From Escherichia phage TrudiRoth: a DNA stretch of 64,000 nucleotides. Of this stretch, positions 580 to 63,990 are shown piece by piece; positions within the stretch are counted from its first letter, which is position 1, and every line of letters starts with the position of its first letter. Below the pieces are notes generated by a model that was given only the letters and a program-made list of their open reading frames with translations, did not search any database and was not told where the DNA came from. Location of the stretch: sequence record MZ501109, one strand, 5' to 3'. Both the position numbers and the translations under genes were made by a program.

Positions 580-677
580 AGCTTTCTCCTCTCAAATTTA
601 TAAATCAATTATACATAAGTTTTAGTTCGAAAGCAAATAAAATAAAAGCCAGGTCGACTAGCAACCTGGCTGATTCA

Positions 678-2904: not shown

Positions 2905-3657
2905 ATGGGAAAAGCACGTCAAAAAAGAGAGAACCGCAATGGTTCAAGAAAGCGTGGCAACAAGTATGAGAGTAACGTAATTCAAGCAGATTTCTCTGGT
3001 GATTACGCCAATCCAGTTGCTAAATCCCTAGTTGGTAAAAACCGTGAGCAAAAATCATATATCAATATGATCAAGAACAACACAGTGACTGTGGGTATTG
3101 GTGAACCAGGTACTGGTAAAACCTTTATTCCGTCCGTTCTTGCAGCTCAGGAACTCGTAGACATTCACTCAGATATTGAGCAAGTGATCCTCGTGCGTCC
3201 GAACGAACCTCTAGGTAAATCTCTTGGTATGCTCCCAGGTGATCTGGCAGAAAAGCTAGAGCCTTGGTTGGAACCAATAACCGATGGTATGAAATGGGCA
3301 ATCGGTGATCACGCCTACAAAGGATATGTCGAACGTCAGAAAATTAAATTCCTGGCTATCGAACATGCCCGTGGCCGAACTTTCAACAACTCCTATGTAA
3401 TTGTCGATGAAGCTCAGAATATCTCCGTTGAAGCAATGATCTGTCTCCTGACTCGTGTAGGACAAGATTGTCGTTTAATTATCTGTGGGGATATAGCTCA
3501 GAAAGACATCAAGGGTGATTCAGGTCTAGCACTTCTTATGGAAGTCTATGAGAAGTACGAAAACTCTCCTTTCTCTATGATCGAACTGATCGACAACGTT
3601 CGCTCACCAGAGTCTAAAGCATTCTACGATATCTTTAAGGATATGGGGAAGGTGTAA
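2905..3657 (+). CDS. phoH: PhoH-like ATPase
   Basis: Walker A GEPGTGKTF and Walker B VIVDEAQN; ORF opens at GTG 2896, ATG 2905 follows RBS TAGGAG. Confidence 0.85.
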   Translation: MGKARQKRENRNGSRKRGNKYESNVIQADFSGDYANPVAKSLVGKNREQKSYINMIKNNTVTVGIGEPGTGKTFIPSVLAAQELVDIHSDIEQVILVRPNEPLGKSLGMLPGDLAEKLEPWLEPITDGMKWAIGDHAYKGYVERQKIKFLAIEHARGRTFNNSYVIVDEAQNISVEAMICLLTRVGQDCRLIICGDIAQKDIKGDSGLALLMEVYEKYENSPFSMIELIDNVRSPESKAFYDIFKDMGKV

Positions 3658-3658
3658 T

Positions 3659-3901
3659 ATGGGAAACGTCGTACATCTGCACCGCAAAACTAAGATCCAC
3701 CGTACTTCACTGAGCGCTGCTAATATGATTACACGTAAGGAAGGGGAAGAAAGTCCTAAGACTACCCTAGCGTGGAAAATTGTAGCCTCTAATCCAAATC
3801 GGCCTTTCAACTATAATGAACTGAGTACTTCTATAGACATTCTTATGGCTAAGGAAATACAACAGAAACTAACTGATATGACCGATAAACTTAAATGGTA
3901 A
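3659..3901 (+). CDS. hypothetical protein
   Basis: 80-aa ORF start-coupled to phoH stop, followed by terminator hairpin. Confidence 0.4.
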   Translation: MGNVVHLHRKTKIHRTSLSAANMITRKEGEESPKTTLAWKIVASNPNRPFNYNELSTSIDILMAKEIQQKLTDMTDKLKW

Positions 3902-3908
3902 GACAGAC

Positions 3909-3941
3909 GAGCCTGGGTATGAAAATATCCGGGCTCTTTTT
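3909..3941 (+). terminator. rho-independent terminator
   Basis: Stem GAGCCUGG/CCGGGCUC followed by UUUUU. Confidence 0.65.
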
Positions 3942-15671: not shown

Positions 15672-15680
15672 AAATTCGAT

Positions 15681-15709
15681 TGCTTAAAGCCTTAAATTTC
15701 TGTATAATA
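15681..15709 (+). promoter_or_regulatory. sigma70-type early promoter
   Basis: -35 TTGCTT, 17 bp, -10 TATAAT. Confidence 0.65.
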
Positions 15710-15739
15710 CTTTCATAAATTAATGAGAGGAAGCGAAAT

Positions 15740-18107: not shown

Positions 18108-19052
18108 ATGTTTACTAAAAACACTAAAGAACTGACTTCCGATCAAAAAGTAATTCGTACTATTAAACGTTGGGGCGTTGGTGCTGTAGTTGGTCTTGGC
18201 GCTCTTATTCTGGCTCTCAATTCCTATACAGTTGTTCAGGACGGTACGGTTAAAACTCAGACTTTCCTGGGTAAAGTTAGTCCTAATCCTGTATTGCCGG
18301 GGTTCCATATTGTCAACCCATTCGCCTCTTTTGATACTTTTAGTACGAAAGATATTTCTATGAAACTGGATAAACTTCAGGTTCCTAGCCAGGATAAGTT
18401 TAAGTCCACTGTTGACATTACCGTTATGTTGCAGTTTGATGGTGCTAAAGCTCCTATGAACCGTGTTAACGCAGGTACTCAGGATCAAGCTCTGAACAAG
18501 TACGTTGAAGAGAAGATGCTATCTACGATTCGTGAGTTTGGTAAGTCTGTACCAAAAGCACAAGATCTGTTCGACGCTAAGATTCAGGCTCAACTGCAAA
18601 CTGCTATTCAGCAAGAAGTAGAAGAGTACGCGCGTCCTTATGGTTACACGGTTAAGCAAGTATTCCTTCAGGATATTACTCTGCCACCTGTAATCATGGA
18701 ACAGGTACAAAACACAAAAGTTCGTGAAGAACAAGTTAACGCCGCTAAAGCTGAATTGGCTCGTGTTGAACAAGAAGCACAGCAGAAAGTTAAGCAAGCT
18801 GAAGCTGATCGTTCTGCTCGTGAAAACATGGCAGTAGCTAACGAACGTGACGCAGATGCTAAACTGTACGCAGCTAAGAAAGAAGCTGAAGCTAACGCCG
18901 CGCTGCAACGTACCATTACTCCTGAAATGATTCGTTGGAAGCAGCTGGAAGTTGAAATGCTTCGTGCTGAAAAATACCAAGGTGGTGTACCGCAGACTGT
19001 TGTTGGTACTGGCTACGATGGTCAAATGATCATGGATATGCGTAACAAGTAA
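18108..19052 (+). CDS. SPFH/band-7 (prohibitin/HflK-like) membrane protein
   Basis: N-terminal TM segment, SPFH core and long Ala/Glu/Gln-rich coiled coil; strong terminator follows. Confidence 0.75.
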   Translation: MFTKNTKELTSDQKVIRTIKRWGVGAVVGLGALILALNSYTVVQDGTVKTQTFLGKVSPNPVLPGFHIVNPFASFDTFSTKDISMKLDKLQVPSQDKFKSTVDITVMLQFDGAKAPMNRVNAGTQDQALNKYVEEKMLSTIREFGKSVPKAQDLFDAKIQAQLQTAIQQEVEEYARPYGYTVKQVFLQDITLPPVIMEQVQNTKVREEQVNAAKAELARVEQEAQQKVKQAEADRSARENMAVANERDADAKLYAAKKEAEANAALQRTITPEMIRWKQLEVEMLRAEKYQGGVPQTVVGTGYDGQMIMDMRNK

Positions 19053-19075: not shown

Positions 19076-19110
19076 AAGCCCGCGTTTCCTCTGAGAGCGC
19101 GGGCTTTTCT
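19076..19110 (+). terminator. rho-independent terminator after the SPFH gene
   Basis: 9-bp stem AAGCCCGCG/CGCGGGCUU then UUUU. Confidence 0.75.
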
Positions 19111-19255: not shown

Positions 19256-19284
19256 TTGCTTGAATGCTAAATTCTCTGTATAAT
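19256..19284 (+). promoter_or_regulatory. sigma70-type early promoter
   Basis: -35 TTGCTT, 17 bp, -10 TATAAT upstream of nadR. Confidence 0.65.
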
Positions 19285-19314
19285 ATATTTATAAATTTGA
19301 GAGAGGAATCAAAT

Positions 19315-20370
19315 ATGATTAAGACTGGTCTAGTAATTGGTAAGTTCGCACCATTAACACGTGGTCATATTAACCTAATAAACACAGCAGCAACTATGTG
19401 TGAACGAGTTATAGTTGTAGTTAGTCATGATAATCGCTGGCTGGATAAACAAAACACACGTGATCAGGAAGTCTTACAGTTAAAGAACCGACTTCGTTGG
19501 TTAGAACAAACTTACGCGGATATTGAGCACATTTCGGTAGAGTACATTATTGAAGATGATATTCCTGAATATCCGAATGGTTGGCCGGAATATGCTAGAA
19601 TACTTAATGAAAATTATGGACATTTGCCTGAGATCACCATTTTCTCTAGCGAACTAGACTATGATGCAGAATATAAGAAATATCTGCCGAAGTTTGGTCA
19701 TTATATTGTAGATTCTGATCGGACTCGTGTTCCAATCTCAGCTACAATGATTCGTAATGATCTTATGAAGTATTGGGAGTTTCTTCCTAGCGTAGTTCGT
19801 AAAGATTACGTGCGTAAGGTTGTAATCATTGGGACTGAAAGCTCGGGAAAGACTACTTTAACAAAATACCTTGCGAAGCTATACAACACTTCGTGGGTAG
19901 AAGAATATGGTCGAACGTATTGTGAAGTTGATCTAGTTGGTAACGAAAATCTGCTTACCAGCGAAGATTATAGTAAAATTGCGTTCAGACACAAAGAGCT
20001 AGAGTTTGAAGCAGAACGTACTGCAAATAAGATCATGTTTGTGGATACAAATGCTTTTATTACTGAGTTCTACCACAGACTTTATGAACATAGTAAGAAT
20101 CCTGTGGTTACAGCAATTGCAAAAGAAGAACATTATGATTTAGTAATTGTTCTAGCGCCTACTGTCAAGTGGGTAGATGATGGTTTACGTATTAACTCCG
20201 ATCGTTCAATTACTTCTGAACTGTTCGAGCAGATGAAGAAAGAATTTCCAAATCAGTTCCCTGAAGGGCGTACTGTTTACATCGACTCTCCGGACTACAA
20301 AGTTCGTATGGACGAAGCAGTAAACGCAGTAGACTGGCTGATTCATCACTTTAACGTTGGAGAGTTTTAA
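19315..20370 (+). CDS. nadR: NadR-like bifunctional NMN adenylyltransferase / ribosylnicotinamide kinase
   Basis: Nucleotidyltransferase motif GKFAPLTRGHINLI and P-loop kinase domain GTESSGKTTL; ATG 19315 after promoter 19256-19284. Confidence 0.75.
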   Translation: MIKTGLVIGKFAPLTRGHINLINTAATMCERVIVVVSHDNRWLDKQNTRDQEVLQLKNRLRWLEQTYADIEHISVEYIIEDDIPEYPNGWPEYARILNENYGHLPEITIFSSELDYDAEYKKYLPKFGHYIVDSDRTRVPISATMIRNDLMKYWEFLPSVVRKDYVRKVVIIGTESSGKTTLTKYLAKLYNTSWVEEYGRTYCEVDLVGNENLLTSEDYSKIAFRHKELEFEAERTANKIMFVDTNAFITEFYHRLYEHSKNPVVTAIAKEEHYDLVIVLAPTVKWVDDGLRINSDRSITSELFEQMKKEFPNQFPEGRTVYIDSPDYKVRMDEAVNAVDWLIHHFNVGEF

Positions 20371-20371
20371 T

Positions 20372-21049
20372 ATGACTAACTATCTCGTAAATGACTTTAA
20401 AAACTGGAAACCTCTGGAATATCTGTGGCTGTTCATAGCGGTTGTCTTCATTAGTTTAGCAAACTATAATGGTACAGCTCTAGATTGGGCTACTGCAATA
20501 ACCAATGTGGTTTGTGTTATTCTGGTTGCAAAAGGACGTGTTTCCAACTATATTTGGGGCTTAGTGGGTGTTCTTACATATGGTATTACAGCTTTAAACG
20601 CAGATCTTTATGGTAACGCTGCACTAAACCTGCTATACTACGTTCCTATGCAGTTTTATGGAATGTACTTATGGCATAAAAATAAGCCAAGTAATCTGCC
20701 GGATGTTCCAACTAAGGTTCTGACTAAAGCCCAAGCTCTGCTGACTCTAGGGATTCTAGCAGTAGCCACGTTAGGGTATGGTAGTTTCTTAGCTACTACG
20801 GCTGATCCATTTCCAATGTTGGATGCATTTACTGCGGTAGGTAGTGTGATCGCTATGTGGCTTATGGTTAAGCAGTATGCCGAGCAGTGGCTGATCTGGA
20901 TTGCTATTAACATTGGTACTGTGTACATTTGGCTTGTAACTGCTCAATCTACAGGTGCATCTTATGCAATCCTAGCAATGTGGCTAGTATTCTTAGGTAA
21001 CTCTATTATGGGAGCCTATAAAGGATACTTTGTACGCGTTAACAAATAA
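20372..21049 (+). CDS. pnuC: nicotinamide riboside transporter PnuC
   Basis: About 7 TM segments, PnuC-like WxxxY-rich profile; overlaps nadR stop; ORF opens at TTG 20357. Confidence 0.75.
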   Translation: MTNYLVNDFKNWKPLEYLWLFIAVVFISLANYNGTALDWATAITNVVCVILVAKGRVSNYIWGLVGVLTYGITALNADLYGNAALNLLYYVPMQFYGMYLWHKNKPSNLPDVPTKVLTKAQALLTLGILAVATLGYGSFLATTADPFPMLDAFTAVGSVIAMWLMVKQYAEQWLIWIAINIGTVYIWLVTAQSTGASYAILAMWLVFLGNSIMGAYKGYFVRVNK

Positions 21050-21058
21050 AGTAGTTAT

Positions 21059-21082
21059 AGCCCTCGCTTAGAGGGCTATTAT
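21059..21082 (+). terminator. terminator-like hairpin after pnuC
   Basis: AGCCCUC-GCUUA-GAGGGCU followed by AUUAUA. Confidence 0.5.
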
Positions 21083-21096
21083 ACAGAAATTTTCAC

Positions 21097-21125
21097 TTGC
21101 TTAATATAGAAAATTTCTGTATAAT
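21097..21125 (+). promoter_or_regulatory. sigma70-type early promoter
   Basis: -35 TTGCTT, 17 bp, -10 TATAAT. Confidence 0.65.
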
Positions 21126-21155
21126 ATATTTATAAATTTGAGAGAGGAATCAAAT

Positions 21156-21452
21156 ATGAAACGCATTGTACTTGCATTGACTCTAGTATCTACTTCTGTA
21201 TTTGCTGCTCCACAACAGGAACTTTGTCAAGTTCAAGTTTGTAATAAGCTAGAACGATTTACTCTAGACATTTGGTCACATATTAAAGATAATATGGGTG
21301 AACAGTGTTTTGATATTGTTCTGCCAAAAGAACAAGCTGTTCCTGGTGCTGTTCTCAGTTCAGAATCACGTTGGTGGCAGGGTTCTTCTATCAATCCAAC
21401 TAAGAAGTCAGTGACACGTATCAAACAAGTATATCAGTGCAATGTTCAGTAA
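21156..21452 (+). CDS. secreted small protein
   Basis: Signal peptide MKRIVLALTLVSTSVFAAP and six Cys. Confidence 0.5.
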   Translation: MKRIVLALTLVSTSVFAAPQQELCQVQVCNKLERFTLDIWSHIKDNMGEQCFDIVLPKEQAVPGAVLSSESRWWQGSSINPTKKSVTRIKQVYQCNVQ

Positions 21453-22774: not shown

Positions 22775-22804
22775 TTGCTTTTTACTTAAGATTTCTGCTA
22801 TAAT
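22775..22804 (+). promoter_or_regulatory. sigma70-type early promoter
   Basis: -35 TTGCTT, 18 bp, -10 TATAAT. Confidence 0.6.
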
Positions 22805-22833
22805 AGTTATATAAGTTGATGAGAGGAATCAGA

Positions 22834-28097: not shown

Positions 28098-28173
28098 GGG
28101 CGAATAGTGTCAGCGGGAGCACACCAGACTTGCAAGTCTGGTAGGGAGGGTTCGAGTCTCTCTTTGTCCACCA
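28098..28173 (+). tRNA. tRNA, isotype unresolved (Ala-UGC or Cys-GCA)
   Basis: Acceptor GGGCGAA/UUUGUCC, D-stem GUGU/ACAC, T-arm GAGGG-UUCGAGU-CUCUC, CCA; perfect anticodon stem CAGAC/GUCUG encloses only 6 nt (UUGCAA). Confidence 0.45.
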
Positions 28174-36059: not shown

Positions 36060-36343
36060 AACCGGAGCCATCCCATGAGTTAAAGCAAGCTCATATAGAT
36101 TGGCCTAAAGGACTTCAGCCGTGTAGCTTTGATTTCAAATTCGAAAAGAAATTAGCTACAAATGGTGAAGATGGCGTAGTAGTTGTTGTACCTTACAAAG
36201 ATTGGAATGCAAAAGCAAAATGCGAGGAAGCAGTTTACTCTTACATTTCACGACTGACCGGTATGGTTTGCTTCTATCGTCAAGATTTACAAGAAAAACG
36301 TTGCTTAGTTTATTATCCACCCATTACAAATAGGAAAGATTAA
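35990..36343 (+). CDS. o-spanin-like lipoprotein (putative)
   Basis: Signal peptide with lipobox ITGC; start lies in the +1 frame inside the end of the i-spanin-like ORF. Confidence 0.5.
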   Translation: MFNWKLGVLLAAAITITGCAEEIKPEPSHELKQAHIDWPKGLQPCSFDFKFEKKLATNGEDGVVVVVPYKDWNAKAKCEEAVYSYISRLTGMVCFYRQDLQEKRCLVYYPPITNRKD

Positions 36344-37095
36344 TGTCAGTATTAGTCGGTTTACACGGTGAGGCTGGTGCGGGAAAAGATACCGTTGCAG
36401 AATTAATGATTGACTGGTGTAATGACACGTTCCCAACGTGTTTATCCCGTCGTTACAGTTTTGCTAAACCCGTTTACGAACTTGCATCCGTAATCCTCGG
36501 GGTAACTCCAGAGTTTCTGGGAGAGCGCAGGGGGAAAGAGATTGACCAATGGTTTACAGTCACACAATCTCAATTGGAGCGAGCTAGAGACATATGGTTT
36601 AAGTATGGTATCGATAAGTTTGAGGACTTCTCGTACGTTTGGCCTATTTTTGAAGGAAAATACCTTGATCCTCAGCAGTTAATTGGGCAAGCTGATGATG
36701 CGCTGTATAGCGTGTTTATCTCCCCAAGAAAAATGCTACAGCTTGTAGGTACTGAGTTAGGAAGGCAGCTGGTGCATGAACGCATTTGGCTCATAATTCT
36801 GGAGCAATCCATCGATAAAGACGACCCAGACGTCGCAATCGTTACCGATGTGCGTTTTCCCAATGAGGGAGAGCTAATCATGGAAACCAATACTCTAGAT
36901 ATGGATTCCATACTTATTAAGGTTGAATCTGGTATTACTAATAAGTATCGCATCGAGACAGATCATCCGTCTGAAAGCGGTATTCCTGAAAAATACATTT
37001 CTCATAAATTTGAGAATACCTTCAACGGACTTGATGCACTTCGTACCGATGTGTACCACTTCTGTGACTTAGAGCTAGAACCACTAGTTGGATAA
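36343..37095 (+). CDS. dnk: deoxynucleoside monophosphate kinase
   Basis: P-loop GLHGEAGAGKDT; 250 aa as for T5 Dnk. Confidence 0.7.
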   Translation: MSVLVGLHGEAGAGKDTVAELMIDWCNDTFPTCLSRRYSFAKPVYELASVILGVTPEFLGERRGKEIDQWFTVTQSQLERARDIWFKYGIDKFEDFSYVWPIFEGKYLDPQQLIGQADDALYSVFISPRKMLQLVGTELGRQLVHERIWLIILEQSIDKDDPDVAIVTDVRFPNEGELIMETNTLDMDSILIKVESGITNKYRIETDHPSESGIPEKYISHKFENTFNGLDALRTDVYHFCDLELEPLVG

Positions 37096-40754: not shown

Positions 40755-40783
40755 TTGCTTTCTGCTAAAAATTTTGATATAAT
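40755..40783 (+). promoter_or_regulatory. sigma70-type early promoter
   Basis: -35 TTGCTT, 17 bp, -10 TATAAT. Confidence 0.65.
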
Positions 40784-40814
40784 ATATTTATAAATTGATG
40801 AGAGGAGTATCACA

Positions 40815-41195
40815 TTGAATTACGCATATCTTATAATACATAACAACGTGGTCTGTGGTACTCGTGCTGTAGAAATGGGAATCACAGAAGAAAAATATAA
40901 GTCACTACCTGAAAAAGAGCAAGAATATTACGTTGAGCAAGCTGCTTGGGAATATGCTGAAGTTTATCCCGAAGAACGTGAAGGTCGTGTTACTATTGTT
41001 GTTGCTCTGGGGCTGGTGGGCTGTGATACCGAAGTTGATACAGATCTAGAAACACTTGAAGAATGGGAAGAGCTGGATATTGCAGAGCAAAATGCTATTA
41101 TCCGTGAATCTTTCTGGGAAGCAGTAGACTGTCACGTTGTCTTTGAGCCAAACGATACAGAAGCTGAAAAACATACTAATTGGATGACTCGATAA
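40815..41195 (+). CDS. hypothetical acidic protein
   Basis: 126 aa, TTG start behind promoter 40755-40783. Confidence 0.4.
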   Translation: MNYAYLIIHNNVVCGTRAVEMGITEEKYKSLPEKEQEYYVEQAAWEYAEVYPEEREGRVTIVVALGLVGCDTEVDTDLETLEEWEELDIAEQNAIIRESFWEAVDCHVVFEPNDTEAEKHTNWMTR

Positions 41196-42058
41196 TGAAA
41201 AAAGAATTTAACCTGCATGAAATGTTAGTAGTACCAGACGATGTTAACCTGTTCTTCGTAGGAGATATTCACGGCTGTAATGATATGCTGGAAGATGCTC
41301 TTAAACTAGCAGGATATAAAGAAAAGCGTGACTATGTTGTCTGTGTTGGCGACTTAATTGACCGTGGCCCGCAGAACTTACAGGTTCTAGCCAAATTCTT
41401 ATATAACCCACGTTTCCGTAGCGTTCGTGGCAACCATGATCAGTTTATGATTGCCGGGGATTATGCCAACTGGATGTATAATGGTGGAATGTGGGCAATG
41501 AATGATCTGGATACCGATACAATTAAAGGTATCGCAGAAGATATGGCAGTTAAAATGCCAGTATTCATGACTGTACTCCATCGTGGCAAGAAATACGGTA
41601 TTGTTCATGGTGGAATACCATTCCAGTATAAAGATGCGGGATTCGATGTACATACACCTAATTGGGACGATATTATTGATCATATCGCTGCAAGTGAAAA
41701 TGATCCTAATGATCATCCTAGTTATTACATTGAGCCATATCTATGGGATCGTGATGTAATTCAGGAAATTGGGTTCATCCTAGCACGTGGAGGAGCTACT
41801 CATGAGTACTTCAATCGTTATGCTAGCTTTAAGAATCAGTTAGTAGTTGAAGTACCTCCAGTTAAAGGTGTGGACTATGTATTCCATGGGCACACAGGTG
41901 TACCATACCCAATCCTGTACCAGAACCGCGTATACCTAGATACTGGCGGTGTGTTCAACGGGAAGTTGACGGTTGCGCAAGTTAATGATGAAGCCGGTAA
42001 GATTATGACATTTACCACAGATAAAAATGATAGCTGTGGTGTACAGAGGATTCTGTAA
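41195..42058 (+). CDS. Ser/Thr protein phosphatase (PPP family)
   Basis: Motifs GDIHG, GDLIDRG and RGNHD; ATG 41195 overlaps the previous stop. Confidence 0.75.
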   Translation: MKKEFNLHEMLVVPDDVNLFFVGDIHGCNDMLEDALKLAGYKEKRDYVVCVGDLIDRGPQNLQVLAKFLYNPRFRSVRGNHDQFMIAGDYANWMYNGGMWAMNDLDTDTIKGIAEDMAVKMPVFMTVLHRGKKYGIVHGGIPFQYKDAGFDVHTPNWDDIIDHIAASENDPNDHPSYYIEPYLWDRDVIQEIGFILARGGATHEYFNRYASFKNQLVVEVPPVKGVDYVFHGHTGVPYPILYQNRVYLDTGGVFNGKLTVAQVNDEAGKIMTFTTDKNDSCGVQRIL

Positions 42059-48475: not shown

Positions 48476-49197
48476 GTATAAAAAAGAATTTAGCAGAGAT
48501 TATTAAGTTAGCTAGAGCTTGTAATGGAAAGAATGTTTCCGAACTTAATGAGTTAGAAGCTCATGCAGTAGCATTTTGTGCAGAGTTTTATCCAGCATAT
48601 ATTAATGCTAGTGGGCAACCTAAATATAATAAAGATGCAGAAGAAGTCACATTAGCCCCTTCATACATTAGCTTACGTCGTCTAATTCAAACTATTGATC
48701 CGACTATTAAAGGATTCTCAGCGGATTCATTCCATGTGTTTGCAGATGTAGAACTTCCACATTTTAAGGAAGCAAATGCAAAGTCAGCATTAGAATGTTA
48801 TCCAAATATTTTAATGGTTCCACAAAAGCAATGTAAATACGATCATCTTCCTAGACTTATTAAAAAGGTAGAACCTCCTTATTCTTCCTTATCTGAATTA
48901 AAGCTAGGGATTGTATCTACTCTTACGCAAGTTCATCTAAGTTTAGTTGATGACAATGTTACTTCTAATCCTATTCTAGATGCCGCACATTATGAAATTC
49001 TACGTGACCCTGAGCAAGCTAGAAAAGTTGCAAAGTCAGTTAAGTTTGATATCTCAACAATTCTTGACATTGAACAAGAAACGAGACCTAGAGGAAGTGT
49101 GGATTATTCTGCGCTTAATTCTGAAGCATCTTATTTAGCGACATTCCTTTTTATGGCATCGAAAGGAGTTATTCTAAAGGTTAACAAAGATGGATGA
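48472..49197 (+). CDS. hypothetical protein
   Basis: 241-aa ORF. Confidence 0.5.
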   Translation: MSIKKNLAEIIKLARACNGKNVSELNELEAHAVAFCAEFYPAYINASGQPKYNKDAEEVTLAPSYISLRRLIQTIDPTIKGFSADSFHVFADVELPHFKEANAKSALECYPNILMVPQKQCKYDHLPRLIKKVEPPYSSLSELKLGIVSTLTQVHLSLVDDNVTSNPILDAAHYEILRDPEQARKVAKSVKFDISTILDIEQETRPRGSVDYSALNSEASYLATFLFMASKGVILKVNKDG

Positions 49198-49918
49198 TTT
49201 ACGTAGTGAAATTAATAAAAACCTAAGAGAGGAAGCCAGGAGGTTTCCTCTCAAAAACTTTTTAAAGTCAAACGGTTCTACTAATATTACAAAGATTAGG
49301 CAGCTTCATCCAGACTTCCAACAAGAGGCATTAAATCTTATCTTTATTAAGAAAGCATTGAAAGTCCAAAAGGAAGAGTATGGGTATGAAAGAGTTAACT
49401 ATAAAACAGCTACTCAATTAGTAGAGATTTGGTGTTACAAACATCAAGGCTATTTTATGCAAACAGCTAGATCCCATCTAGAAGGGCACGGTTGTTTACA
49501 ATGTGCTAGAGAAAGCAATCTCAATACACCTATCGAGAAACCGGAAATAGATGAGGATGTTCAGTTTCCCACCTATCTCTATATCTTCTCTAATAAGGAT
49601 CAGTCTAGGAAGAAATTAAAGACGAAGATTGGAGTTTCTAGAGAGCCACATCAAAGGTTTAAGAATCTAGAATATGATAAACTGCGTGTGCCGGGTTTCG
49701 AAGATATGGAAGTATTTGGTATATATCAGTATAAGAAAGGATCTAAAGAACTTGCTTATAAAATGGAACATCAAGCACATAAATTTTTCGAGAGCAGATT
49801 TGCTAATCATTATAAATTCGATGGAGCAAAAGAGATATTCAACGTTAAGGCTGTGGAGGCAGAAGAATATTTATTAAGTCAAGGATGCATAAAAATTTAC
49901 CCAACTCCAAACTCATGA
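49190..49918 (+). CDS. zinc-finger plus GIY-YIG/T5orf172-like protein
   Basis: N-terminal Cys/His cluster (HQGYF...HLEGHGCLQCA) and C-terminal TYLYIFSN...KIGVSREPHQR. Confidence 0.5.
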   Translation: MDDLRSEINKNLREEARRFPLKNFLKSNGSTNITKIRQLHPDFQQEALNLIFIKKALKVQKEEYGYERVNYKTATQLVEIWCYKHQGYFMQTARSHLEGHGCLQCARESNLNTPIEKPEIDEDVQFPTYLYIFSNKDQSRKKLKTKIGVSREPHQRFKNLEYDKLRVPGFEDMEVFGIYQYKKGSKELAYKMEHQAHKFFESRFANHYKFDGAKEIFNVKAVEAEEYLLSQGCIKIYPTPNS

Positions 49919-53829: not shown

Positions 53830-54825
53830 TTATTCACTTTCGGTGTTAGTGGTAAAGGTAGAAATGTCAATACCTTTTACCATTTCGTCGATCATTTCAG
53901 CAATATTGAAACTCTGTACCATTTCCAACATTGCCGCTTCCATTGCCGCGCCTGCTACCGCTTTCGCTTTCTGATTAGTCGGGGCGTACTGGTCAACTGC
54001 TACGCTTAACAGGTTAGCGATCACTATACGACCAATCGGCGTATCGATATAACCTTTAATCATAAACGGCGCTTTTTTCGCCGCTACTTTCGTGATTTGA
54101 GTTAATGCAATTTTACCCGCTTCCAGTTTTGCAGCATTTACAACAGCGGATTTATTAGCAGCAACGATAGAAGATACTTTAGTCATGATATTTCCTTTAT
54201 TTTCAGTAGTTTGCGCATTTGCGCTTGAAGTTTGAGAGTTTACAGCCTGTTTTGCTACGTTGTCAACTGGTTTTAGTGTAAATCCAGCGTTTGCAACGTT
54301 TGATTCATTCCCATACTCTAAATAATCGTTAGGGATCAACATGTTACCGCTAGCGCGTTCAAAACACAATACGCCAGTTGTTTCGATTGCGTCACTATCC
54401 GCACGTTTAATGGCGCTTGTCAATTCGCCCCAAATGCTAGACAGTAAATCTTCTACATCTCTGGAATTAATACCATTTACGCGAGTAGCGAAAACCATTT
54501 CTTTTTCTTGTACATTGTAACCACGGGCAATATAGCTTTTTTCGTCGTGACCTACAATGATAAAATCAATATCGCTTCCCCGCTGATTTCGTATGATGTG
54601 ATAGTCACGGTTGTAAAGCACTAGAACGCGGCTAGGGTCTAGTAATAGCGTGAAATCATCGACTGAATAATGAGTATCATTATTATCTAAAATATCATCG
54701 TGAATCTTTTCAACCATTGCCACCGTATGTTGTAGGCTTGCTGGACTTGATCCGTCTAGCAGGTTGCGCAAAATACCCTTAATAATAGTGGCGTTTGCTG
54801 GTACTGCAATTCTTACAGTAGACAT
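53830..54825 (-). CDS. hypothetical protein
   Basis: 331 aa, first and largest gene of the - strand block; Ala/Val/Asn-rich central region. Confidence 0.55.
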   Translation of the reverse strand: MSTVRIAVPANATIIKGILRNLLDGSSPASLQHTVAMVEKIHDDILDNNDTHYSVDDFTLLLDPSRVLVLYNRDYHIIRNQRGSDIDFIIVGHDEKSYIARGYNVQEKEMVFATRVNGINSRDVEDLLSSIWGELTSAIKRADSDAIETTGVLCFERASGNMLIPNDYLEYGNESNVANAGFTLKPVDNVAKQAVNSQTSSANAQTTENKGNIMTKVSSIVAANKSAVVNAAKLEAGKIALTQITKVAAKKAPFMIKGYIDTPIGRIVIANLLSVAVDQYAPTNQKAKAVAGAAMEAAMLEMVQSFNIAEMIDEMVKGIDISTFTTNTESE

Positions 54826-57653: not shown

Positions 57654-59318
57654 ATGAATATTTCCGCAGAAAAACAGTCTCAGATCAATAAACTTGCCGC
57701 CGACTTTAATTTCTACGGTAAGCGTTTACGCGCTACCAAACTTGAAGTTTGCGACGATATTTCAAAAGCTGTATATGATACGCCGAAACATTCAACGGCA
57801 ATTTGTGACTGGTTGGAAGCAAATAAGCCAGCGAAACCGAAGGCAGCGAAAGCTGTAAAAGCCATTAAAAACGATGATCGCCCCGAAGCGGCGGGGATCG
57901 TTTCTAGCACGGTTGAGCAATGGGAAGTTAAATCCGGTCGCCGTTTTATTCTAACGTCGATTCAAAATAATACTTTCCCGCACAAAAACTTTTTGAAAGC
58001 GCTTGAGCAATACGCTAGTTATTATGGCGCTGAATTGCTTGTTAGCAAATTCATTTACAACAAAAACGGATTTCAGAATGGGGAAGGCGGCGAAAAAATC
58101 AAATATGATCCCGCATTTGATAAATATATTTGTGAGAAAAACGTATTTTTAAATAATCGCCGCTTTGCTTTCATGGCTGAAATTAACGTATTACCAACGG
58201 CAGATTATCCGCTTTCAGGATTCGCAGAAACTGCCACCGCTTTAAATATTGAAGGTCTGGCAATTGGTCACGCAAAAATTACCGCTGAAAGTGTGCCAGC
58301 GTTAAAAGGTGAAGTAGTGCGCCGTATGTACTCCACCGGAACGGCTACGCTTAAAAACTACATTCAGCAGAAAGCAGGTCAAAAAGCTGAGGCGCTGCAT
58401 AATTACGGCGCTTTGCTGGTAGAATTTGACGACGACGGCGAATTTTTTGTTCGCCAGCTTGAGACAATGGATGAAAGCGGGATGTTTTATGATTTGAATA
58501 TTTGCGCTATACCAACCGGATGTTTCAAAACATCTGATCATGTTTTAGGTTTGCAATATGGCGATATTCACGCCGAAAAATTAGATGATGATTGCGCTGT
58601 TGCATCATGGGTGGGCGAAAATAGCTTGCTTGATATTCTTAAACCAAAATATCAGTTTATCCATGATGTGCATGATTTTACATCGCGTAACCATCATAAT
58701 CGCGCCTCTGGTGTATTCCTAGCTAAACAGTACGCCGCCGGACGTGATAAAGTTATTGATGATCTTATCGATACTGGACGTGTATTAGAATCAATGGAGC
58801 GCGATTTTTCTCAAACAATCATCGTGGAATCCAATCATGATTTGGCGTTATCCCGTTGGCTTGACGATCGCAACGCTAATATTAAAGACGATCCCGCAAA
58901 CGCCGAACTGTATCACAGCCTAAACGCCGCTATTTATGCAGCTATTGCAAAACAAGATGATACCTTTAACGTATTGGATTACGCGCTTAGAAACGTTGCA
59001 GGTTGCGAATTTAACGCTATTTTTCTGACTACTGACCAATCTTTCAAGATTGCAGGAATTGAATGCGGCGTACACGGTCACAATGGCATTAACGGCAGTC
59101 GGGGCAATCCTAAGCAGTTTAAGAAACTTGGACGCCTCAACACTGGCCATACTCACACGGCGAGCATTTACGGTGGCGTGTATACCGCTGGCGTTGCTGG
59201 TAGTCTCGATATGGGTTACAACGTGGGCGCGTCAAGCTGGACGCAAACGCATTTAATTACCTATGCAAACGGGCAACGTACTTTGATTGATTTCAAAAAC
59301 GGTAAATTCTTTGCATAG
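57654..59318 (+). CDS. A1: A1-like pre-early protein (metallophosphoesterase fold)
   Basis: 554 aa with GDIH, SNHD and GHTH phosphoesterase motifs; size and position next to dmp match T5 A1 as I recall it. Confidence 0.7.
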   Translation: MNISAEKQSQINKLAADFNFYGKRLRATKLEVCDDISKAVYDTPKHSTAICDWLEANKPAKPKAAKAVKAIKNDDRPEAAGIVSSTVEQWEVKSGRRFILTSIQNNTFPHKNFLKALEQYASYYGAELLVSKFIYNKNGFQNGEGGEKIKYDPAFDKYICEKNVFLNNRRFAFMAEINVLPTADYPLSGFAETATALNIEGLAIGHAKITAESVPALKGEVVRRMYSTGTATLKNYIQQKAGQKAEALHNYGALLVEFDDDGEFFVRQLETMDESGMFYDLNICAIPTGCFKTSDHVLGLQYGDIHAEKLDDDCAVASWVGENSLLDILKPKYQFIHDVHDFTSRNHHNRASGVFLAKQYAAGRDKVIDDLIDTGRVLESMERDFSQTIIVESNHDLALSRWLDDRNANIKDDPANAELYHSLNAAIYAAIAKQDDTFNVLDYALRNVAGCEFNAIFLTTDQSFKIAGIECGVHGHNGINGSRGNPKQFKKLGRLNTGHTHTASIYGGVYTAGVAGSLDMGYNVGASSWTQTHLITYANGQRTLIDFKNGKFFA

Positions 59319-62208: not shown

Positions 62209-63990
62209 ATGAGTTTTTTCGCAGGAAAATTTAGTGATGGTAAAACTGTATTATCTCTAAACGCTGCTAATGGTGGTGATATAAATCAGCACTACTCTCC
62301 AAATACTAATAGTATCTTCCACTCAGATATGCCATTTGTCCTAGTTGATGGGACTTATGAAGCAGCCCTAGGTAACGCAGGTAATGGATACTTTGTTACT
62401 CAGATGCCTTGGGATATTATAAATATTAAATCCAATGATCCGGGTAGAGTTATATTAACTGCTATTGAGATAAACGGTACTCATCGTGGATTTCTGAATG
62501 GTACTCAATCTCAGGTTGGCCAGTTCTTATCATTCTTTGAAGACCCACCACGTGCTGGTGCTGAATTATCTGTAACATCTGCTTTTGCGATCGGTGATAG
62601 TTTAGCTCATGGTACTTATATCTATAATGGTGGTCTTGGTCATGAGGAATCTATTGCTAGGCAAGGTTCTGGAGGCAGTTTACTACAGTCCTCTGGTTTC
62701 CAGATCTTTAGACCTGGTGGTGTTTCTGCTGGTGAAGCCATTGCCAGAGCCTGGAGTCTTATGGGTTTTCCAACTGGTGTCTCTACTGTTCCTTTAGATG
62801 GTGGTAACGCAGATTATTGGGAACCTAACTGGCAGGCGCCTATTGGTTCTGCTGGTAGAGGCCATGATTGGTTTTATGTTTGTAGTTCTAATATTCGTGG
62901 CTTCGCAGGTAAAAAAGGCGTACTACCAGATAACGTAAACGTTCTTTACCAATCTCCTGCATACCCAGAAAAAATATATGTTTGTAGAGGTTCTACTTCT
63001 AATATGGCTGCTCAGTCTGCTAGAAAGGTATATGTACAGGACTGGTATAACGTTACGCCAACTAAGGTTATTTGGTATGTGCTAAATCTGCGCTATTCTA
63101 ATGGTAGTATGGGAGTTTCTGGTAATCCATTTACCGGTTCAGATATCCTAATATCTCCGTCTAATTTTACTATTAAAGGTGTTAGCCTACCAAATACAGG
63201 CTATAAATTTATTAACCAGAATGCTTTCGGAAACTTAGGCTATCGCCCTGATATGGAGTATGTTGGTAATAACGCTGCGTATACCGGAGTTTTTGGTGAT
63301 AATACTGCACGATGTGAATTTATCGGCTCTAGTAATGGCGGGTTGTGGTCTCCTGTTAACTATGGGGGTGCAGCTTCTCAAATTAGCTTATATAAATTTG
63401 GTATAGGTAAACAATGGTATGTAGATACTAATACCAACTCCATTGGTAATGAACATGGACCTGTGTGGAGTCCTAGTACTGTACCCCTCAGGTTATTCCC
63501 AGGCAACGTTGCAAGTACTTATGTAGGGGACGATATAACTCCATCCTACCCTGGTGCTGGTGACTTCTACACACCTTTGGCCACAGTTTGGTTGGGATTA
63601 CCAAATGCTCACTCTACTGTTATATTAACTACTGAAGTTATTATGGGTAATCTTAATACTGCTGGAATGCCTGTGCGTACTTACGGCGGTAGCGCTTGGC
63701 AGGTACAAGGTAGACGTCAACAAAGTTATACAGCTGGTGATGGTGTATTCCACCAGATTCTTACTCTGCCACCTGGATATCTAGTACCTTATCACAGTAC
63801 AACTTCCTATAGTTATATACAGACTTGGGCTAGTAGGCCTGATGAGTTTGCTTTCCGTAGGAACGGATATATTTATACTATTAAAAACCTTGGTAATGGC
63901 AACGTTGAGTTGGGTGTTATCATTCACGCTGCAGAAGCGGCAGCTGTTTTCTTGCCAAGACTACGTGTAACAGTTCAACGCCTAACCTAA
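62209..63990 (+). CDS. oad: receptor-binding tail protein (pb5-like)
   Basis: 593 aa, Gly/Asn/Ser/Thr-rich, paired with the llp-like lipoprotein as in T5 oad-llp. Confidence 0.6.
   Translation: MSFFAGKFSDGKTVLSLNAANGGDINQHYSPNTNSIFHSDMPFVLVDGTYEAALGNAGNGYFVTQMPWDIINIKSNDPGRVILTAIEINGTHRGFLNGTQSQVGQFLSFFEDPPRAGAELSVTSAFAIGDSLAHGTYIYNGGLGHEESIARQGSGGSLLQSSGFQIFRPGGVSAGEAIARAWSLMGFPTGVSTVPLDGGNADYWEPNWQAPIGSAGRGHDWFYVCSSNIRGFAGKKGVLPDNVNVLYQSPAYPEKIYVCRGSTSNMAAQSARKVYVQDWYNVTPTKVIWYVLNLRYSNGSMGVSGNPFTGSDILISPSNFTIKGVSLPNTGYKFINQNAFGNLGYRPDMEYVGNNAAYTGVFGDNTARCEFIGSSNGGLWSPVNYGGAASQISLYKFGIGKQWYVDTNTNSIGNEHGPVWSPSTVPLRLFPGNVASTYVGDDITPSYPGAGDFYTPLATVWLGLPNAHSTVILTTEVIMGNLNTAGMPVRTYGGSAWQVQGRRQQSYTAGDGVFHQILTLPPGYLVPYHSTTSYSYIQTWASRPDEFAFRRNGYIYTIKNLGNGNVELGVIIHAAEAAAVFLPRLRVTVQRLT

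Follow-up and report, generated by a model that had tools for sequence, protein, structure and literature searches.

What do a NadR-like enzyme and a PnuC-type transporter, encoded side by side, do for a T5-like phage? A preliminary description of this locus had called the two genes an NAD salvage pair and suggested that a nicotinamide riboside (NR) import and conversion route could counter NAD-depleting defenses or supply NAD for phage metabolism. We examined the pair in its window, by which we mean the whole 64,000-nucleotide stretch of Escherichia phage TrudiRoth DNA (sequence record MZ501109) that was analyzed. The window comes from a T5-like phage (Demerecviridae, Epseptimavirus-like); hundreds of Demerecviridae records match the region. 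It contains 23 tRNA genes at 17.8-30.7 kb.

The counter-defense idea is already known. In a 2024 preprint (bioRxiv 10.1101/2024.02.11.579819), Osterman et al. had pointed to the same operon in BASEL phages as a probable further route of NAD+ reconstitution, and the demonstration came in August 2026, when Yan et al. named Bas30_86/Bas30_87 of Escherichia phage TrudiRoth NARP3 (Sci Adv 2026; PMC13464706). We found that nadR-pnuC is very probably (roughly 0.9) a copy of NARP3, its two genes forming a self-contained unit within the tRNA-rich early part of a T5-like phage genome.

Both open reading frames were found where the preliminary description had placed them:

19315-20370, plus strand, gene for the NadR-like bifunctional enzyme (ATG at 19315, TAA at 20368-20370, 351 amino acids)
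20359-20364, plus strand, ribosome-binding site GGAGAG of pnuC, 7 nt upstream of the pnuC ATG and in the 3'-terminal part of nadR
20372-21049, plus strand, gene for the PnuC-type nicotinamide riboside transporter (ATG at 20372, TAA at 21047-21049, 225 amino acids)

That description also had the genes overlapping at the stop and start codons, which proved incorrect. The junction reads TAAtATG, and the genes abut, with 1 base separating the stop from the start. Starting pnuC at the in-frame TTG at 20357 would create an overlap. We rejected this start in favor of ATG 20372 because of the GGAGAG sequence 7 nt upstream, the published residue numbering of the transporter (N45, Q94, and N180), and the CDS coordinates in annotated relatives. 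The placement of GGAGAG inside the end of nadR would be compatible with translational coupling of nadR and pnuC. The enzyme-first order and the same layout of adjacent genes were also found in Salmonella phage S114 and in Escherichia coli phage Shin27 (Epseptimavirus), which is the best match over 25 kb among the records compared (90% coverage, 98.8% identity).

We found that the motif quoted in the preliminary description, GKFAPLTRGHINLI, corresponds to residues 9-22 of the NadR-like protein. The second NMNAT (adenylyltransferase) motif, ISATMIR, lies at residue 141, and the Walker A motif of the kinase, GTESSGKT, lies at residue 173. Pfam matches were to CTP_transf_like at residues 7-147 (3.4e-07) and to AAA_28 at residues 168-314 (8.5e-32), and the NCBIfam NadR equivalog NF005988 scored 253 bits against a cutoff of 201. 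The assignment of an NMN adenylyltransferase and a ribosylnicotinamide kinase, made earlier from motifs, was thus confirmed by Pfam and NCBIfam HMM searches. The protein is divided as follows, with no HTH domain:

residues ~1-166, NMN adenylyltransferase
residues ~167-351, ribosylnicotinamide kinase

Many phage records give the first gene another identity, naming it "NadR transcriptional regulator" or "multifunctional transcriptional regulator...", in which case its product would control NAD genes of the host or the phage. The alignment with NF005988, however, spans only model positions 65-407 of 411. Because it starts at position 65, we concluded that the N-terminal HTH (DNA-binding) domain of bacterial NadR is absent. 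Upstream, the reading frame stays open for only 17 more codons, and the preceding 260 nt consist of terminator and promoter, leaving no coding space for an HTH domain. Bas30_86 was likewise described as a truncated NadR without the HTH domain (PMC13464706). We therefore rejected the regulator identity, to which we give almost no credence. Without the DNA-binding domain, the NadR-like protein is an enzyme and not a regulator, it does not belong with the trifunctional bacterial NadR proteins, and the GenBank name "NadR transcriptional regulator" is a misnomer here.

The identification of the second protein as a PnuC transporter was borne out by matches to Pfam NMN_transporter (2.9e-43) and to the NCBIfam equivalog TIGR01528 (121 bits, cutoff 42). 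Other members of the Pnu family carry thiamine or riboflavin precursors, and the phage protein scored far under the cutoff of the enterobacterial PnuC subfamily model NF011926 (67 versus 335 bits). It might then carry a substrate other than NR or have a nontransport role, such as superinfection exclusion. We consider this very improbable. The match to TIGR01528 speaks against it, as do the alignment over 207 residues with the Neisseria mucosa nicotinamide riboside transporter 4QTN (1.4e-32) and the position of pnuC one base after the gene for an NR kinase. The PnuC-like protein Bas30_87 forms a trimer and binds NR (Kd, about 0.66 μM), and this binding was abolished in the N45A, Q94A, and N180A mutants (PMC13464706). 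All three NR-binding residues are present in the PnuC protein of the window, numbered from ATG 20372.

We found that the NadR-like protein is identical at 351/351 residues to the chains of PDB 9X6F/9X6H, which are crystal structures of Bas30_86 with NAD+ bound and in the apo form (PMC13464706). That work names or mutates 22 enzyme residues (binding and catalytic), and each of them is present at the same position here, including K10, H18, S37, E80, P84, G89, D115, E230, and D275. Those shown by mutation of Bas30_86 to be needed are K10/S37, E80/P84/G89, E230, and D275 (PMC13464706). We equated the PnuC protein with Bas30_87 by length, residue numbering, and cluster membership. The locus thus shares with NARP3 an identical enzyme, a transporter of the same length with the same three NR-binding residues, the gene order, and a T5-like phage as carrier. 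We concluded that nadR-pnuC and NARP3 are the same system and that nothing of substance differs.

The activities of this system have been published. In an HPLC assay, the NadR-like enzyme, with ATP, converted NR to NMN and then to NAD+ (PMC13464706). Plating of T7 and lambda rose 10^3- to 10^4-fold on Sir2-HerA hosts, and this required both genes, neither being sufficient alone (PMC13464706). Together, the two genes restored NAD+/NADH levels, and NARP3 likewise countered DSR1 (PMC13464706). The rescue was NR dose dependent, with an EC50 of 3.6-5.6 μM; in all of these functional experiments, the genes were expressed from plasmids and the phages, T7 and lambda, were heterologous (PMC13464706). 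The proposal that NR import and conversion would act against NAD-depleting defenses has therefore been demonstrated for Bas30_86/87 (PMC13464706), whose enzyme is the one encoded here.

According to the model that we favor, host RNA polymerase would transcribe nadR-like and pnuC after infection from one T5-type promoter. PnuC in the inner membrane would then admit external NR, as shown for Bas30_87 expressed from plasmids. The kinase domain of the NadR-like enzyme would use ATP to convert NR to NMN, and the adenylyltransferase domain would join NMN and ATP to form NAD+, both steps having been shown for the identical protein expressed from a plasmid. An NAD+ pool emptied by NAD-cleaving defenses of the Sir2-HerA or DSR1 type would in this way be refilled, and the phage would complete replication, as seen in the plasmid assays with T7 and lambda. 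Because Sir2 and TIR enzymes do not release NR when they cleave NAD, the pathway has to rely on NR from the environment.

We compared the pair with other NAD-rebuilding systems. NARP1 (Adps plus Namat) and NARP2 (Nampt plus Nmnat) likewise consist of two phage genes each, rebuild NAD+, and overcome NAD-depleting defenses (bioRxiv 10.1101/2024.02.11.579819). NARP1 starts from intracellular ADP-ribose and nicotinamide, and NARP2 starts from nicotinamide and PRPP. NARP3 differs from both in that it starts from imported NR, rather than recycling the products of NAD cleavage, and includes a membrane transporter and is hence medium dependent. Although the final step of NARP2 is also carried out by an NMN adenylyltransferase, the partner gene of the NadR-like enzyme encodes the PnuC transporter, which places the pair outside NARP2. 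We found no Pfam match to the NARP2 partner Nampt among the 15 window open reading frames scanned, and none is listed in the annotated relatives examined. The NadV/NatV proteins of Vibrio phage KVP40 similarly include a phage NMNAT-containing bifunctional enzyme for NAD salvage. In contrast to the phage enzyme studied here, KVP40 NatV combines NMNAT with a Nudix domain in place of a kinase domain, and its pathway runs from nicotinamide via Nampt. The NMNAT/Nudix model gave a negligible score with the NadR-like protein (18 bits against a cutoff of 449).

Bacterial NadR is also a two-domain NMNAT plus ribosylnicotinamide kinase enzyme, and the phage protein matched Haemophilus influenzae NadR (1LW7) with an E value of 7.6e-55 and 8X7F with an E value of 7.5e-51. 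8X7F is the trifunctional NadR of E. coli / Salmonella. The bacterial and phage enzymes share the NR-to-NMN-to-NAD+ chemistry, but the phage protein is without the N-terminal HTH repressor domain. H. influenzae NadR as crystallized (1LW7) has two enzyme domains only, as does the phage protein. The phage transporter has the same fold as chromosomal PnuC. In E. coli, nadR and pnuC are at separate loci, whereas in the phage they are one unit and one base apart.

The sequences that flank the pair bear on how it would be expressed:

18108-19052, plus strand, gene for an SPFH/Band 7 membrane protein, homologue of the T5.080 "lipoprotein" (Pfam, 2.9e-19)
19076-19106, plus strand, terminator-like hairpin, a 12-bp GC-rich stem followed by a T run (-20.7 kcal/mol, z -4.0)
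19256-19284, plus strand, candidate sigma-70-type promoter called from the sequence (TTGCTT at 19256-19261, 17-nt spacer, TATAAT at 19279-19284)
19299-19308, plus strand, leader sequence GAGAGAGGAA, a purine-rich ribosome-binding site 6 nt upstream of the nadR ATG
21057-21079, plus strand, GC-rich hairpin just 3' of pnuC (-18 kcal/mol, z -5.1)

We found that the promoter and leader in front of nadR belong to a family with the form TTGCTT, 17 nt, TATAAT, and then ATAAATT..GAGAGG. The window contains six occurrences of the pattern TTGCTT-N16-18-TATAAT-N10-25-GAGAGG, whereas 0 were expected (none in 100 shuffles). The copies of the family lie at 19275-19318, 21116-21159, 588-636 (minus strand), 15680-15730, 22775-22826, and 40755-40805. 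Those before nadR (19275-19318) and before the next gene (21116-21159) are identical over 44 nt, ribosome-binding site and start codon included. We take the family to resemble the classic strong T5 promoters. At the equivalent of the nadR promoter site, S114 annotates a "putative P15b-like promoter." Our call of the nadR promoter was made from this annotation and the repeated promoter/leader pattern, not from a generic sigma-70 scan. That scan was not enriched over shuffles overall and missed the TTGCTT/TATAAT candidate, whose -35 hexamer matches at 3/6 positions; inside nadR, upstream of the pnuC start, it gave no promoter-like site. No member of the promoter/leader family was found between nadR-like and pnuC. 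The single shared promoter of the preliminary description therefore stands as a reading of the sequence, with one family member upstream and none between the genes. We infer promoter use and early timing of nadR-pnuC on the same basis.

The terminator-like hairpin at 19076-19106 would close the unit of the upstream SPFH gene and isolate nadR-pnuC, and both S114 and T5 have a bidirectional rho-independent terminator annotated at the equivalent site. The hairpin at 21057-21079, which has a weak T tail and was not called by the terminator scan, is the probable end of the transcription unit. Because of the 1-nt gap, the internal ribosome-binding site, the one upstream member of the promoter family, and the flanking hairpins, nadR-like and pnuC look like one small transcription unit.

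The open reading frame directly after pnuC (21156-21452, plus strand) encodes 98 amino acids and has in front of it the promoter/leader copy that matches the one of nadR. The N terminus of the encoded protein resembles a signal peptide (MKRIVLALTLVSTSVFAAP). It had no Pfam match and is "hypothetical" in relatives. On the other side of the pair, the terminator that separates the T5.080 homologue from nadR is annotated in T5 as bidirectional and adjoins a major single-strand nick site.

We then considered how widely the pair is carried. We found matches to the nadR-pnuC coding region in 208 phage records, and in 201 of these the match spanned at least 80% of the region. The matching records are mostly Salmonella and Escherichia T5-like phages, and about 200 T5-like records annotate the same pair with the same gene lengths; the names given are NadR, NMN adenylyltransferase, or ribosylnicotinamide kinase, plus PnuC. 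Sequences identical to the PnuC protein were present on 35 contigs, and those identical to the enzyme were present on 24. The flanking 25 kb matches 623 phage records, a set that is mostly T5-like and also includes more distant phages, and about one third of them (208/623) carry the cassette. T5 itself lacks nadR-pnuC. The syntenic slot of T5 (NC_005859 37279-39671), bounded by T5.080 and its bidirectional terminator on one side and by tRNA-Ser(GCU) on the other, contains T5.076-T5.079 instead. The position beside the bidirectional terminator is thus a variable cargo site among T5-like phages.

Within the tRNA cluster, ARAGORN reported a tRNA at 28098-28173 (plus strand) with the four-base anticodon tgca, and its identity was not called. 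tRNA-Ala genes are annotated in the tRNA clusters of Shin27 and T5. Elsewhere in the window, we obtained these further Pfam matches:

36343-37095, 41180-42058, 49190-49918, and 53830-54825 (minus strand), in this order a dNMP kinase-like protein, a calcineurin-like phosphoesterase, a T5orf172 domain protein, and a DUF7566 protein

The calcineurin-like phosphoesterase is annotated as a Ser/Thr phosphatase in Shin27. The large open reading frames at 57654-59318 and 62209-63990 had no Pfam match. Shin27 also has a gene for a Sir2-family "NAD-dependent deacetylase" (3072-3923 of the compared segment), about 20 kb upstream of nadR. The Sir2-like gene would fall just left of the start of the window. 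Its product is a candidate NAD consumer and might help to explain the presence of an NAD supply route in the phage.

These surroundings relate to a different purpose for the pair, one in which it is an auxiliary metabolic module that provides NAD+ for NAD-consuming or NAD(P)-dependent phage enzymes and for a burst in nucleotide metabolism, with or without a defense system in the host. The neighboring genes include nrdA/B, nrdD, and the genes for thymidylate synthase and the dNMP kinase-like protein, with dihydrofolate reductase in relatives, and Shin27 encodes the Sir2-like "NAD-dependent deacetylase." The NAD salvage genes of Vibrio phage KVP40 were reportedly first interpreted as metabolic supply. 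The published phenotypes, moreover, come from heterologous phages and not from the native phage. Against this, the published rescue was specific to NAD-depleting defenses and needed both genes. An accessory cassette, carried by 208 of the 623 records and absent from T5, also points to a conditional benefit more than to a core metabolic need. Because of this accessory distribution and the defense-specific published phenotype, we favored counter-defense and regard a metabolic supply module as unlikely. The two roles are not mutually exclusive.

A related possibility is that in the native T5-like phage the cassette serves mainly as a nutrient-conditional NAD supply for phage NAD consumers, such as the Sir2-like protein of Shin27, rather than in counter-defense. 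We think this rather doubtful. If it were true, the fitness or host range of the phage would depend on environmental nicotinamide riboside.

Our preferred reading remains that nadR-pnuC is NARP3 and acts against NAD-depleting defenses. The mechanism, the structure, and the anti-defense effect have already been published for the identical protein, and finding the system again bears out the preliminary description but adds no new biology. What it points to is the part that the module plays in its native phage and how this part would vary with environmental NR. NAD depletion is one of the commonest ways in which bacteria abort phage infection, and NAD-rebuilding pathways decide whether such defenses work.
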